This document shows positions 823 through 42,005 of a stretch of DNA of 64,000 nt, one piece after another (position 1 is the stretch's first letter; each line of letters opens with the position of its first letter). The DNA comes from Escherichia coli (GTDB lineage Bacteria > Pseudomonadota > Gammaproteobacteria > Enterobacterales > Enterobacteriaceae), in NCBI RefSeq assembly GCF_003019035.1, contig NZ_CP027448.1. One strand, 5' to 3'. The notes under the pieces were generated by a model that saw only the letters and a program-made list of their open reading frames with translations, had not been told where the DNA came from and did not search any database. The position numbers and the translations under genes were made by a program.

Positions 823-850
823 GCAATAATGTGAATATTCACATTATTGC
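823..850. promoter_or_regulatory. 28-bp perfect palindrome spanning the copB stop; candidate CopB operator at the repA promoter
   Basis: gcaataatgtgaat|attcacattattgc read directly; functional assignment is inference from RepFIIA biology. Confidence 0.4.
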
Positions 851-1096
851 TCTGCGTTTCAGCTCTGATTCAATCAGTTTTTCAAGCATCTGCGCCTGGG
901 TAATACCTTCCTCATCTGCCAGTTCACTCAGCCTGTCTTTTAAACGGGCCTGGATAACCGCATGAAAAGCCTTATGAGTGTTGCTTCTGCGAGCCAGAGA
1001 AGCCCTTTGCCTCTCTCTGGCCGGAACAGGGTTACCTTTCCGGTATGCACGCTTGTTACCTGATGAGGAAGTCACTGCATTTTCTGTCTGCGACAT
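839..1096 (-). CDS. copB: CopB/RepA2 replication regulatory protein
   Basis: 85-aa [16 protein letters not shown]...[19 protein letters not shown], recognisable as IncFII CopB; upstream of copA/repA1 as expected. Confidence 0.85.
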
Positions 1097-36660: not shown

Positions 36661-37044
36661 TTATTCATCATCATTTTTTGGGAAAAACCGGTCCATCTCA
36701 ACAGACACTTTCTCTCTGATATCGTCAACCATACTGGCATATTCAAACTTCGGGTTTCCGGAGACATGAGGACTGAGAGACTCAATACCTAAAATTTTCG
36801 CTACTGATGATTGTGTTTTTACAACGCATTCAAGAAGTAATTTATTAAACTCAGTCTGATTAAATGCAGACTCTTTACGCTCCATCTGAGCGTCATATAC
36901 ACGGAGCCCTAATTCAAGAAGCATTGAAGCAGTTCCTGAAAGGCTTATATCTTTATCTCTTGCTCCCTCCTGACGACGCTTTTCAACAATCATGTTAATT
37001 TTTTCATGAACCTCATTACTGATATACAGATTTACTCTGGCCAT
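36661..37044 (-). CDS. traM: TraM relaxosome protein
   Basis: 127-aa ORF MARVNLYISNEVHEKINMIVEKRRQEGARDKDISLSGTASMLLELGLRVY..., matching F-like TraM. Confidence 0.9.
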   Translation of the reverse strand: MARVNLYISNEVHEKINMIVEKRRQEGARDKDISLSGTASMLLELGLRVYDAQMERKESAFNQTEFNKLLLECVVKTQSSVAKILGIESLSPHVSGNPKFEYASMVDDIREKVSVEMDRFFPKNDDE

Positions 37045-37120
37045 AAGACAGTACCTTTTAGATTCTGAAATAAGAGTTTTATTTCATCTACTCATAGTAT
37101 GGTCTGAAAAAATAAGAGCA

Positions 37121-37176
37121 CCCCTAGCAGCGCCCCTAGGGGCATACTATAAAAAAACGCACGGCGCTGCTAGGGG
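37121..37176. promoter_or_regulatory. 14-bp inverted repeat pair flanking a palindromic core upstream of traM; candidate TraM autoregulatory/relaxosome binding sites
   Basis: cccctagcagcgcc (37121..37134) and its exact reverse complement ggcgctgctagggg (37163..37176), with cccctagggg at 37133..37142. Confidence 0.4.
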
Positions 37177-37220
37177 CGGCCCTAATATATCCAAATGTTT
37201 TTCATGAAAATTGTCAAAAC

Positions 37221-37272
37221 TGACCCTAACAAGGGTCGTCATAGGGTCGTTATAGGGTCGTCAACGACCCTA
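37221..37272. promoter_or_regulatory. Three phased direct repeats (agggtcgt at 11-bp spacing) plus an inverted copy; candidate accessory-protein binding sites in oriT
   Basis: agggtcgt at 37232, 37243 and 37254, followed by caacgaccct; spacing of one helical turn. Confidence 0.4.
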
Positions 37273-37344
37273 TTTAATAATGTAAAATAAATTAAAATAC
37301 ATTATTTAGAACATAAACTAATGATTTAAAAAACAAATCAGCAA

Positions 37345-37400
37345 AAACTTGTTTTTGCGTGGGGTGTGGTGCTTTTGGTGGTGAGAATCACCAACCTGTT
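37345..37400 (+). other. oriT: oriT nic region (F-type relaxase site)
   Basis: tttgcgtggggtgt|ggtgcttttggtggtgag matches the F-family nic motif as I remember it, with the adjacent inverted repeat ggtggtga/tcaccaacc; lies between traM and gene X. Confidence 0.8.
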
Positions 37401-37458
37401 GAGCCTTTTTGTGGAGTTGGTTAAATTATTTACGGATAAAGTCACCAGAGGTGGAAAA

Positions 37459-37968
37459 ATGAAAAAATGGATGTTAGCCATCTGCTTGATGTTTATAAAT
37501 GAGATCTGCCATGCCACTGATTGCTTTGATCTTGCAGGCTGGGATTACAAAATAGATCCTGATTTACTGAGAGCAATATCATGGAAAGAATCCCGTTACC
37601 GGGTTAATGCCATCGGTATTAATCCGGTAACGGGATATGGCAGCGGACTGATGCAGGTAGATTCCCAGCATTTTAACGAACTGGCCCGCTACGGAATTAA
37701 GCCAGAACATCTGACAACAGATCCCTGCATGAACATTTATACCGGTGCTTATTATCTGGCAATAGCATTTAAAAAATGGGGCGTCACCTGGGAGGCCGTT
37801 GGTGCATACAATGCAGGATTCAGGAAATCCGAACGCCAGAACCAGAGACGTCTTGCCTACGCATCAGAGGTTTACCGGATTTATACCGGGATAAAAAGCA
37901 GTAAAGGTATCCGGCTTCCGGCCACGAAGAAATCACTTCCGGAAATTAACAGCGTGCAGAACAATTAA
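37459..37968 (+). CDS. Gene X / Orf169 lytic transglycosylase
   Basis: ORF contains [57 protein letters not shown]..., matching F orf169; start set at the internal Met, track ORF starts at 37366. Confidence 0.9.
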
Positions 37969-38220
37969 TCTTACAGATATTGTCAGATACCGGTTATGCC
38001 GCAAAAGCGGCATGGAAGGCCACACACAAAAATATCATATGAGTGACAATACTGACTGGCCGAAGCCCCGCGAAGAGGTAACCCATCTTATATATACCCG
38101 GTAACTGCGCAGCCTCCTGCCAGACCATTTTTCGCGGGCACAATATTTACAGACAACCGGAAATCCGGTCGATGAAATTGAGGTATATCAGACGACACAG
38201 CAATGCCGAAAAATGATAAT

Positions 38221-38260
38221 ATAAGTAAAGCCCCGAAAAATTTTTCGGGGCTTTACTTAT
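38221..38260. terminator. 40-bp perfect palindrome, candidate bidirectional terminator between convergent genes
   Basis: ataagtaaagccccgaaaaa|tttttcggggctttacttat; GC stem with A/T runs on both sides. Confidence 0.6.
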
Positions 38261-38378
38261 ATTATCATGACTTCCACTTTCTGAACTGTTCGGCAATCAC
38301 CCATAACGCCTTGTTGATTCTTATATCACCATCAATACCTGTAATGGCTCTTGTCCTGGTATTTTTCCCGGAGGCACT

Positions 38379-39167
38379 TCACCCCGATAATCCACCTTTT
38401 ATCATATTCTCCTGAACCCGCTGCCAGGTTGTCCAGAGATCGTTCTGTTTGTCTTCCCGACGACGGGGAGTAATTATCTGTTCAGGTGTCACTGGCGTTT
38501 TATTTTCATCTTCATACCTGACCATCAGTGCAGCTCTGCCAAATAAATGTTGCTCGTCACTGTTAAGATGAATTTCTTTCATCGCCTCCATATTATCAGT
38601 GACCTTATCAAAGACACCGAGCACTTCATACGCTCCCTCGATAACCTGCCCGACAATATCACCTTTATGTGGAACGCGGATTTCGCCAAAATTATTTCCG
38701 CACACCAGGCCATTTGTGCAGACAAAACGAAAAATTCCGGGGATCATCTGATAACTGGATGAACCATCATGTGAATTAAGCAGGATAATTTCAGGAGCTT
38801 CCTGTCCGTTAATATGCCCTTCCCTGCGAAGACGTAACATATGTTTACTGTATTCGCGACGTCCCAAATCACGAACCCGACTCTGACAGGCAAAGAATGG
38901 CTGGAAACCTTCATCACGTAACTTATTGATGATATTGATTGTTGGAATATACGTATAACGTTCACTCCGGGACTCATGTTTATCACCGGAAAATACCGAA
39001 GGCACGAACTGCATTAATTCATCATCCGTTAAAGGACGTTCACGGCGGATGGAATTATACCGACCAAAACGGGAAGCTAATCGCATAACAGCTACTCCTT
39101 TATGAAAGAATAAATTTAATAAAAAATTTTTCCGCTTAATATCATCCCCCCTGATCTCCATTAACAA
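38379..39167 (-). CDS. Leading-region protein, DUF932-like
   Basis: 262-aa ORF convergent with gene X, the position of F orf273; family assignment from memory only. Confidence 0.6.
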   Translation of the reverse strand: MLMEIRGDDIKRKNFLLNLFFHKGVAVMRLASRFGRYNSIRRERPLTDDELMQFVPSVFSGDKHESRSERYTYIPTINIINKLRDEGFQPFFACQSRVRDLGRREYSKHMLRLRREGHINGQEAPEIILLNSHDGSSSYQMIPGIFRFVCTNGLVCGNNFGEIRVPHKGDIVGQVIEGAYEVLGVFDKVTDNMEAMKEIHLNSDEQHLFGRAALMVRYEDENKTPVTPEQIITPRRREDKQNDLWTTWQRVQENMIKGGLSG

Positions 39168-39204
39168 GATTGCAACAATCAGGAGGGATATTCATCACAT
39201 CCGG

Positions 39205-39492
39205 TCAGCAGATCGCCCGGATATCGAGGCCGGCACGCTTAATCTGACGCAGGAACTGTTTGAAGTGATCGGCTTCCGCAATGTTGATATGGCGGAACTG
39301 CTTATCCACACCCTGACTGAGCGCGTAGCTATAACTGAAGGCCATCTTTTCCGGGTGGCTTTTGCGATATTTTTTCAGCTCAGTCAGGCTGCTGAATTCC
39401 AGGACGTCCCACTCTTCCCTGGTGTTTTTTTTCTTCCCGGCAACAAGAAGCGTGTACGACGCGGTGTTAACGTGGATATTTCGGGTACTCAT
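39205..39492 (-). CDS. Leading-region protein, DUF905-like
   Basis: 95-aa ORF directly downstream of repeat copy 1, with GGAG Shine-Dalgarno; family assignment from memory only. Confidence 0.55.
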   Translation of the reverse strand: MSTRNIHVNTASYTLLVAGKKKNTREEWDVLEFSSLTELKKYRKSHPEKMAFSYSYALSQGVDKQFRHINIAEADHFKQFLRQIKRAGLDIRAIC

Positions 39493-39514
39493 CCTGCTTT
39501 CTCCTCTCTCTGGT

Positions 39515-40142
39515 TTTCAGCCCCCATCATCTTTTGAGTTTCGGGAGCCGCGGTTTTGACGTTTTGCGGGGACCTGCCTTTTGTTCCCTCCGGTATTCAC
39601 CATCACCTTTTTGAGAACCTTCGCCGCAAGGGGCATCACTGCCACGGACGGAAACGACTGTCCGGGGGCAGACCGCAAAAGTTTTTGCCTGCTTTTGAGC
39701 AAAAAGTTTTGCGGGATGTACATTTCACCCCTGGACTGGCGGAGACGGTTGTGGCTGTATCAGCCCCCGGCGACAGGGGCTTAAACAGGTGAATGGCACC
39801 GGACAGAACAACGGGCAGGGACCCGCCGCAACGACGTGAAGCGCGGTTTGCGAAACGGCGTTGCCCCTTACATCCCGGCGGCCTTTTGCCGGGATGCCGG
39901 GAGCGCAGGCCACGGCGCGACAGAGGCGGCGCGACCGGAACGGTCGCTGCAAGCCCGGGGTTTTCACGCATCGGACCGTAGCGACAGCCCGAAACCGCGC
40001 CAGCGGGTTCGGCGGAGACTGGCAGGTGCGCCAGCAGCTGCCTGTCGGAGTCGGGCCTGACGACCGGATGCCGCCAAGCAGCCGGGAGCCGAAGGTGCGC
40101 CCGGCAGATAGGACAACACTGCAGTAGTCAGAATCAGAGCAG
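39515..40142 (-). repeat. Frpo/ssi-like structured repeat, copy 1
   Basis: About 620-bp GC-rich block shared with 44936..45565 and 48265..48880, each directly upstream of a minus-strand gene set. Confidence 0.7.
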
Positions 40143-40413
40143 AAAGAAAAAGAGAATAATCACAGGGAAGGTGATGTGATTTCTGACAGGCCATAACCAG
40201 AGAAGGCGGGGGAAAAGAACGGGCGCCGCAGGCGCGCGTTCATCCCCGTTCCTGAAGGGAAACGACCTTCCTGAAGTCAGGTTGTTCATGCCCGTACAAC
40301 ATCAGCAAGGAGAAAGGGGCTACCGGCGAACCAGCAGCCCCTTTATAAAGGCGCTTCAGTAGTCAGACCAGCATCAGTCCTGAAAAGGCGGGCCTGCGCC
40401 CGCCTCCAGGTTG

Positions 40414-40572
40414 CTACTTACCGGATTCGTAAGCCATGAAAGCCGCCACCTCCCTGTGTCCGTCTCTGTAACGAATCTCGCACAGCGATTTTCGTGTCAG
40501 ATAAGTGAATATCAACAGTGTGAGACACACGATCAACACACACCAGACAAGGGAACTTCGTGGTAGTTTCAT
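40414..40572 (-). CDS. hok: Hok-family membrane toxin
   Basis: Manual minus-strand translation gives [52 protein letters not shown]. Confidence 0.9.
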
Positions 40573-40630
40573 GGCCTTCTTCTCCTTGCGCAAAGCGCGG
40601 TAAGAGGCTATCCTGATGTGGACTAGACAT
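40418..40630 (-). CDS. mok: Mok (modulation of killing) overlapping reading frame
   Basis: 70-aa ORF overlapping hok in another frame, the canonical hok/mok arrangement. Confidence 0.65.
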
Positions 40631-40670
40631 AGGGATGCCTCGTGGTGGTTAATGAAAATTAACTTACTAC
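40600..40670 (+). ncRNA. sok: Sok-like antisense RNA (approximate)
   Basis: Inferred from hok/sok architecture, antisense to the mok start region; boundaries not resolved. Confidence 0.3.
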
Positions 40671-40851
40671 GGGGCTATCTTCTTTCTGCCACACAACACG
40701 GCAACAAACCACCTTCACGTCATGAGGCAGAAAGCCTCAAGCGCCGGGCACATCATAGCCCATATACCTGCACGCTGACCACACTCACTTTCCCTGAAAA
40801 TAATCCGCTCATTCAGACCGTTCACGGGAAATCCGTGTGATTGTTGCCGCA

Positions 40852-41571
40852 TCACGCTGCCTCCCGGAGTTTGTTCGGCACCATCCACCGCTCCATCTCA
40901 CGGACAGCGTGACCGGCCTCTCTTGCTGCAAGACTGGCTTCCGCAATAACCTGCCAGAACGGCATATCCTGCCACTGCCAGCGTTCCATTCCGGCCAGTG
41001 ACGGAAAACGCTCGCCCCACTGCCAGAACAGGGTTTCCAGGTCATGCTCTGCCACCCGGTCACTCCAGCGTGCATGCCAGCTTCCGACTGTTTCCGGCGA
41101 ATGGAATGCCAGTTCGATTTCAGCCTGAGCGACCAGCGCCTGGTACGCACGGGCTTTCTGCTCTGCCTCCCTCGCCTGCTGGCGGCTGTACTTCTGCATG
41201 ACCAGCGCGGATTTATGGCGACTGCGTTCCCTGACACGAAACCGCACCGACGGGAACAAGCGCTCTGCTGCATCACCGGGAAGGGGAAGGAGGCAGACCT
41301 CGCCCTGTGTTTCAATCAGCACATCGATGGCATACAGCCACTGAAGACGGTTGCCGTGCAGTTCTTCTGCGGTCAGGGACGGCATGAAAAATCGCAGGTC
41401 AGACAGCGATATCCTGCGGCTTCCGTTCAGACAGCGGAAAAACGCCCCCGCATACGGATATTCAGCCAGCGTGTTACCCTGATGGCGGCGTTTTTCGGTC
41501 TCCGCCACCGCCCGCCATACGGCCTGTTGCTCTGTGCTGAGGGGAACCAGTGCCTGTGAACGTGCGCTCAT
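40852..41571 (-). CDS. psiA: PsiA
   Basis: 239-aa ORF directly downstream of psiB, as in F-like leading regions. Confidence 0.85.
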
Positions 41572-42005
41572 GCCTGACCTCCTTCCGCCATCAGGATATG
41601 GATGATGTCACTGACGCTGTACCCCTGCGCGTCCAGTGACGCCGCCAGTGCCAGTGAATGGCTGACGGCTTCCGGTGCAAACCGCCGCTGTACCTGAACC
41701 ACCGCAAACGGCTCACCACCGGCATTCACCAGAACCAGCACCCAGACCTGAGAGACATCGCCCGGTGAACATAACGCCAGGTGAAAACGTTCGTGGGCAG
41801 GCGTGAAACGGACCTGGACGGGGAAAAATCCGCCAAACTCGCTGCCGTACTCGCCGTTCATCGTCCAGTTGTCCGGCGCATCCAGCTCCCGCATCACGGC
41901 GTGTGTCAGCTCACGGCGTTCATCACTTCCGGCAGCCCGGATATCTTCATATTCCTGTGTGTTCATGGTCTGTAATACATTCAGGGTCAGTTCAGTTTTC
42001 ATCAC
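41568..42005 (-). CDS. psiB: PsiB (inhibitor of RecA/SOS induction)
   Basis: 145-aa [67 protein letters not shown]..., matching PsiB. Confidence 0.9.

Follow-up and report, generated by a model that had tools for sequence, protein, structure and literature searches.

A 56-bp perfect palindrome beside oriT of an IncF plasmid: a probable intrinsic terminator hairpin closing the orf95-DUF932 leading operon

Introduction

Most inverted repeats that directly follow a stop codon in E. coli are intrinsic terminators (PMC6060812). Two-way terminators have A and T tails that are complementary and tend to base-pair (PMC1852404). The palindrome described here shares with bidirectional intrinsic terminators a GC-rich hairpin with a short A/T loop, complementary A- and T-tracts, a position after a stop codon and between convergent genes, and a core that is identical to the gene-end hairpins of many unrelated bacteria. 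It departs from them in several respects: its tails are complementary for 14 further pairs, which gives a 26-bp stem found in only 2 of the 120 generic copies listed; its T-tract, TTTACTTAT, is interrupted and weaker than most; a stop codon lies within the stem; and selection is seen on one RNA.

A second group of related structures is formed by the Frpo/ssi promoters of F and IncI plasmids, which are likewise stable leading-region hairpins that can fold on the transferred strand. In plasmid F, ygfA is the sole tested leading-region gene in the opposite orientation, and its expression is late, taking place only once the plasmid is double-stranded (PMC9849209). The remaining leading genes are transcribed off the incoming T-strand from Frpo/ssp hairpin promoters (PMC9849209; bioRxiv 10.64898/2026.01.09.698686), and leading-gene expression is transient (PMC9849209). 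The palindrome belongs to the same transcription unit as Frpo1, which lies ~1.3 kb upstream. Nevertheless, Frpo/ssi promoters are imperfect stem-loops of 100-330 nt that rebuild -35 and -10 boxes and lie upstream of genes, whereas the palindrome is perfect, rebuilds no promoter and has natural variants that unpair the transferred strand. Its identification as a promoter of this type was rejected, as it spans 56 nt, lies downstream of genes and has no box pair in its stem.

REP elements and the 3′-UTR stabiliser hairpins of E. coli are also extragenic palindromes, occur at convergent junctions and would leave a paired 3′ end. The palindrome is not dispersed but single-copy, and it is by copy number, rather than by the REP consensus, that it is set apart from them. 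In the sib/tI system of phage lambda, known for retroregulation, a long RNA duplex forms just after a gene, and termination and read-through yield different RNA ends. The likeness, a long perfect RNA duplex after a gene, is by analogy only, and concerns the alternative that the hairpin may serve message stability or RNase III cleavage, as explained below. Among the papers covered on ORF169/ORF273, yubP/yubQ and ssi sites, no description of the hairpin was found.

The operon that would run from Frpo1 through orf95 to DUF932 is under active study for its early post-conjugation expression, and the palindrome would define the 3′ boundary of this oriT-proximal leading unit. A striking palindrome beside oriT of F-type plasmids appears to receive an ordinary explanation, which mainly tidies the record.

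Extent, rarity and folding of the palindrome

The window, that is, the whole stretch of 64,000 nt that was analysed, had been noted to hold a perfect 40-bp palindrome at 38221-38260. The sequence is exactly as claimed, but the true extent is longer (Table 1). The two arms, 38213-38240 and 38241-38268, are 100% complementary and have zero spacer, which makes this the longest perfect palindrome of the window. In 200 first-order Markov sequences matched to the composition of the window, the longest arm had a mean of 7.9 nt and a maximum of 12 nt. The 56-bp palindrome is therefore far above chance expectation and strongly non-random. Unlike a dispersed repeat, it occurs only once in the window and in each plasmid record.

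As a single strand, the palindrome folds into a 26-bp stem closed by a 4-nt loop. A stretch of 101 nt that contains it has a predicted folding energy of -42.9 kcal/mol as RNA (z = -10.9) and of -27.1 kcal/mol as DNA (z = -10.3), no shuffled sequence equalling either value. The isolated 56-nt RNA hairpin reaches -38.4 kcal/mol and the inner hairpin -18.2 kcal/mol. Searches against Rfam 15 returned zero families at gathering score on the palindrome; the matches below threshold were chance ones, to models that combine a hairpin with a U-run, among them miRNA precursors and the PyrG and His leaders.

Next in length among the perfect palindromes of the window is AGCAATAATGTGAATATTCACATTATTGCT, at 822-851, with arms of 15+15 nt. 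The stop codon of a CopB/RepA2-like ORF of 85 aa (839-1096, minus strand) overlaps it, and we take this palindrome to be, probably, the CopB operator and repA promoter region of the IncFII replicon.

Setting in the IncF leading region

The window derives from an IncF plasmid: FinP, the traJ 5′ UTR and sok were recovered near the palindrome at full Rfam score, and positions 37000-41600 are collinear with plasmid F at 93% identity. The gene order is traJ and traM (minus strand), the oriT gap, gene X (plus), the palindrome, the DUF932 gene (minus), orf95 (minus), hok/sok and psiA (minus). Gene X and traM are divergent according to both sequence and annotations. Gene X converges on the palindrome, its stop codon being separated from the left arm by 244 nt. 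This spacer (37969-38212) is conserved, with 92-99% identity among E. coli plasmids and ~75% to Salmonella; it holds no convincing ORF, terminator or Rfam match, and is possibly the 3′ UTR of gene X.

Table 1. Coordinates of the palindrome and of the neighbouring features in the window
Feature	Position	Strand	Remarks
Full perfect palindrome	38213..38268	.	56 bp, 28+28 nt, same sequence on both strands
Inner core AAAGCCCCGAAAAATTTTTCGGGGCTTT	38227..38254	.	GC stem GCCCCG/CGGGGC, A/T centre; tail TTTACTTATATTATC in either direction
Centre A5T5 run	38236..38245	.	Loop and innermost A-T pairs; A3-6/T3-6 in relatives
DUF932 gene (orf273 / yubP)	38265..39086	-	Pfam PF06067; 273 aa and 822-nt CDS in relatives
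Normal DUF932 stop TGA (38265-38267) and in-frame TAA (38262-38264)	38262..38267	-	Both within the right arm
Gene X (orf169 / ygfA / yubQ)	37366..37968	+	Pfam SLT lytic transglycosylase; 169-aa form from 37459
orf95	39205..39492	-	Upstream gene of the orf95-DUF932 transcription unit; no Pfam match
Frpo1-like long imperfect stem-loop	39538..39860 (approximate)	+ (transferred strand)	Upstream of orf95-DUF932

On the other side of the palindrome, a 921-nt single-stranded DNA fold over the Frpo1-like region has a predicted energy of -233 kcal/mol (z = -13.4). The tip of this stem-loop lies at 39673-39714, in the GC-rich gap between orf95 and hok/sok, and its position corresponds to that of the single-stranded-DNA promoter Frpo1/ssp1a, which in F is located upstream of ygeA/ygeB (PMC9849209; bioRxiv 10.64898/2026.01.09.698686). 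Since the stem-loop lies just upstream of orf95, the palindrome would end a unit that runs Frpo1, orf95, DUF932, head-on to gene X. Gene orientation, taken together with the work on F (PMC9849209), indicates that the plus strand of the window is the T-strand.

The palindrome had been placed between gene X and a DUF932-like gene. The two genes are indeed convergent and of the expected families (Pfam SLT on the plus strand, DUF932 on the minus strand), but the element does not lie strictly between them, as in relatives the DUF932 TGA falls inside the right arm, which is the 5′ arm of the minus-strand hairpin. With the 3′ end of DUF932 lying within the hairpin, any annotation, reporter fusion or deletion made there will disturb the putative terminator. 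In the window, DUF932 ends early, at 235 instead of 273 aa, owing to a nonsense codon at 38379-38381 (minus strand), where the CGA shared by all aligned relatives has become TGA through A instead of G at 38381; the premature TGA may represent a pseudogene allele or a sequencing error.

Anatomy of a putative terminator and recurrence of its core

The inner hairpin has the anatomy of a Rho-independent terminator. Its stem (GCCCCGAAA/UUUCGGGGC, loop AAUU) has a predicted energy of -14.8 to -18.2 kcal/mol, and by TransTermHP rules, which accept candidates with a hairpin score of -2 or lower and a tail score of -2.5 or lower (PMC1852404), it scores -14.5, in keeping with a stable, GC-rich and short-looped stem. 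In either direction the tail TTTACTTATATTATC obtains -4.10 and so qualifies as a U-rich tract, but it is interrupted and modest: of 238 generic tails that follow this core, 89% are stronger. Beyond the full stem, the same rules give the outer tail -4.15 for the minus and -1.85 for the plus strand, and the T-run found there (TTTTC in the window) is unconserved among relatives. The element is also placed as a terminator would be, at the 3′ end of a transcription unit with the DUF932 stop inside the stem. The inner stem begins only 10-13 nt past this stop codon, and at such a distance a coupled ribosome partly represses a terminator (PMC4824070).

The core of this hairpin recurs widely. A scan for AAAGCCCCGAAA-N(0-8)-TTTCGGGGCTTT, with one genome per species, found the 24-nt core in at least 120 unrelated genomes. 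Among the matches listed, almost all come from unrelated bacteria, for example Bacteroidota and Firmicutes, with a single F-like copy (L047). With ORF context taken from a crude stop-to-stop call, 103 of the 120 listed copies lie at ORF 3′ ends, 60 of them between convergent ORF ends and 43 at one end, and only four are inside ORFs. By its sequence, then, the core is a generic hairpin of terminator type. What is not generic is the extension of the arms. Perfect pairing usually goes on for 0-4 nt past the core; of the 120 matches listed, two reach 26 nt, one of which is an F-like contig. As the outer arms pair mutually here, they fit the tail pairing that has been described for two-way terminators (PMC1852404). 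Apart from how long and how perfect its stem is, the palindrome is ordinary.

The earlier note had described the element as a GC stem with flanking A/T runs that would work as a terminator in both directions. The GC stem comprises only the inner six pairs, the outer arms are A/U-rich and the T-run is modest (tail -4.1). That it is a terminator is supported by its anatomy, its position, the recurrence of the core at gene ends of unrelated genomes and the covariation described below, from which termination itself would follow as the likely activity. As for the two directions, the palindrome is its own reverse complement, so that the hairpin encoded towards DUF932 would form identically on the convergent gene X transcript. 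The two RNAs being identical across the palindrome, the inner terminator should act both ways. On the other hand, selection can be demonstrated, from natural variants, for the minus direction only, and a consensus scan flagged a terminator on the minus strand alone.

Conservation of the palindrome and variation at its centre

A comparison among related plasmids had been suggested as a check. The palindrome is kept in thousands of records, and the length of its centre varies. Megablast recovers the spacer and palindrome together from 4,190 plasmid records and blastn from 4,556, the majority belonging to Escherichia, Klebsiella, Salmonella and Shigella. F itself carries the same hairpin at NC_002483 65,256-65,310, with a centre of A3T6 instead of A5T5. 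Perfect symmetry at the centre is thus lineage-specific. In pSLT-like Salmonella plasmids, the flanks are ~75% identical, and the palindrome is kept with two mirrored double changes.

Variation was analysed in 117 F-type copies, obtained from a metagenome scan anchored in the 3′ coding sequence of DUF932 and from plasmid loci. The canonical arms are present in 96 of them. The centre exists in 12 forms that differ in length or sequence (A3-6/T3-6, together with T>C changes), which is consistent with slippage in an unconstrained loop, and the interval from CCCCG to CGGGG measures 9, 10 or 11 nt.

The last observation bears on the proposal that the palindrome is a double-stranded operator for a dimeric protein, for instance a component of the relaxosome or a leading-region regulator. 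Perfect dyad symmetry and proximity to oriT speak for an operator, and a weak promoter-like match (9/12) overlies the left arm at 38192-38220. Fixed spacing of half-sites is nonetheless lost in natural copies, which differ by up to 2 bp; the strand-asymmetric pattern of G·U pairs detailed in the next section would be meaningless for duplex DNA; and the same core recurs at gene ends of unrelated phyla. We give this proposal hardly any credence.

The palindrome had also been suspected of being cruciform-prone or fragile, and a fragile site that extrudes a cruciform could drive rearrangement of the leading region. The AT-rich centre favours cruciform extrusion, and two anecdotal broken contigs are known: in one of them an 85-nt deletion ends at the centre, and in the other the right arm contains the end of an IS66-family element. 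These two disrupted copies compare with 117 copies of the sample and over 4,000 plasmid records in which the palindrome is intact, and both come from metagenome assemblies, in which they are possibly assembly errors. Moreover, at 56 bp the palindrome is much shorter than those that suffer SbcCD-dependent instability in E. coli. Fragility of the site is accordingly most improbable. Since copies broken by deletion or by an IS exist, the palindrome appears to be dispensable.

The first of the disrupted contigs (L155, QZLQ01001425.1, near ~3226) lacks the segment equivalent to window positions 38156-38240, the right end of the deletion falling exactly at the centre, and is also without part of the gene X 3′ region. 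In the second (L247, 1-1790), a P4-type integrase gene and an IS66-family C-terminal remnant or end (Pfam DDE_Tnp_IS66_C) abut the right arm (junction …GCCGCTTAC / TATTATCATGAC), this integrase/IS66 segment replacing gene X and the left arm.

Strand-specific covariation

Within the arms of the 117 copies, four stem pairs are altered on both sides with Watson-Crick pairing kept, a number that none of 500 shuffles reached. In addition, seven different single-sided transitions occur, and all seven are T>C or G>A on the plus strand; each of them therefore leaves A·C mismatched on the plus strand, and the RNA of the minus strand still pairs as a G·U wobble. In pSLT, a single transversion close to the outer end abolishes pairing on both strands. 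Over the 22 distinct sequences, 99.8% of the cells are paired on the minus strand, including nine G·U cells, as against 98.0% on the plus strand, where ten cells are unpaired. Compensatory and wobble changes together, as expected of a conserved RNA structure, are found for the minus-strand RNA only. No variant with a wobble on the plus strand was seen in five further plasmid records.

The direction of mutation was controlled with the rare transitions of 230 nt of non-coding and 400 nt of coding flank, where 92 are of the class that would give G·U in the minus strand and 112 of the opposite class. The flanks thus have no such bias, and the probability of a seven to zero split is 0.45^7 (p about 0.004). 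Per base, changes are less frequent in the arms (16 in 46) than in either flank, non-coding (183 in 230) or coding (202 in 400). Tolerance of G·U on one strand only is the signature of an RNA structure on that strand, here the DUF932-sense transcript. As read from these natural variants, the pattern shows that selection acts on an RNA hairpin at the end of the orf95-DUF932 message, and not on a protein site, a cruciform or a hairpin of T-strand DNA. Where a palindrome is perfect, comparing the wobble classes of the two strands in this way is an inexpensive means of finding the strand under selection.

It could be argued that the symmetry is upheld by mutation rather than by selection, a short terminator having been extended and kept perfect by intrastrand template switching, so that the double changes would be single copying events. 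The double changes are exact mirror images, homopolymer slippage marks the centre as a mutationally active site, and one deletion ends precisely at the palindrome centre. Template switching may well be the source of the mirrored double changes. As an account of the whole element it is improbable, because template switching cannot filter single changes by wobble class (7:0, compared with 92:112 in the flanks), and because the arms carry fewer changes per base than either flank.

The same seven variants weigh on the idea that the functional form is a DNA hairpin on the transferred plus strand, which would act as a roadblock to complementary synthesis, as a priming site or as a stop for transcription templated by single-stranded DNA, ahead of gene X and oriT. 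The DNA hairpin is stable (-27.1 kcal/mol, as given above) and the plus strand is the T-strand, as argued from gene orientation and PMC9849209. Furthermore, another leading-region stem-loop, ssp2, is a proven roadblock that is resolved by UvrD (bioRxiv 10.64898/2026.01.09.698686). All seven single-sided variants, however, put an A·C mismatch on the T-strand, three of them together in pSF-088-type plasmids, and the hairpin, only 56 nt long, has no rebuilt -35/-10 boxes and lies downstream of the T-strand-templated genes. This function on the transferred strand is very unlikely.

A probable terminator with an unusually long stem

The explanation that we consider probable is that the palindrome is an intrinsic terminator hairpin that ends the oriT-proximal leading operon, symmetric by sequence and with an unusually long paired extension. 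The RNA hairpin that it encodes would mark the 3′ end of the orf95-DUF932 transcript, downstream of a single-stranded-DNA promoter of the Frpo1 type. Its inner part, GCCCCGAAA, loop and UUUCGGGGC, followed by UUUACUUAU..., would be the Rho-independent terminator at which RNA polymerase is expected to stop, and the outer 14 A/U-rich pairs would correspond to the two tails of a two-way terminator paired together. Such paired tails would leave a fully duplex 3′ end, expected to resist 3′ exonucleases, and in this manner the long stem may stabilise the message. A terminator at this junction would keep leading-region transcription from going antisense through gene X into oriT, and likewise would keep gene X transcription from going antisense into DUF932.

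Covariation in the outermost pairs implies that the RNA spans the whole palindrome, unlike what would be seen with simple termination at the inner tail. For this reason, and given the modest T-tail, the unconserved outer T-run and the 10-13-nt distance from the stop codon, a second RNA-level reading is kept alive. It proposes that the hairpin is a 3′-end processing or stability element of read-through transcripts, its 26-bp duplex acting as a barrier to 3′ exonucleases or as a target of RNase III and setting the lifetime of the orf95-DUF932 message. The full stem must exist in RNA, as the covariation reaches the outermost pairs; its -38.4 kcal/mol far exceeds what termination needs; arms this long are present in only two of the 120 generic core copies among the matches listed; the T-tail is weak; and leading-gene expression is transient (PMC9849209). 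On the opposite side, the core is found in other genomes as a textbook terminator motif at the ends of genes, and a role in stability or processing is compatible with termination and does not exclude it. As the main function of the palindrome, we hold it to be unlikely.

It can also be speculated, with a similarly low expectation, that the 14 extra A/U pairs work as a timer of zygotic induction, the duplex 3′ end or RNase III cleavage setting how long the Frpo1-driven message survives, or else that the hairpin halts transcription from a single-stranded DNA template short of gene X and oriT.

Hairpins at the same junction in other plasmid lineages

A scan of viral contigs with the DUF932 3′ anchor returned zero matches. 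In Klebsiella plasmids of the IncFII(K) type, the order is DUF932, a hairpin (GCGCCGGGCAGCTGTCCGGCG, then TTTT), a DUF5983 gene, a 32-nt spacer with a small hairpin and the convergent SLT gene, and in an Enterobacter plasmid DUF932 is followed by yet another hairpin, whose T-run lies on the opposite strand. In these Klebsiella and Enterobacter IncF-like plasmids (L010, 2323-2720; L006, 1111-1480), the additional DUF5983 gene between DUF932 and the SLT gene has non-homologous hairpins at its two junctions. The possibility that the 244-nt spacer of the window holds a remnant of DUF5983 was discarded, the best tblastn and blastn matches having only E = 0.1-0.4, and the F/R100-type spacer retains no trace of this gene. 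Judging from these sequences, a hairpin after DUF932 is recurrent, and its sequence and polarity are non-uniform.
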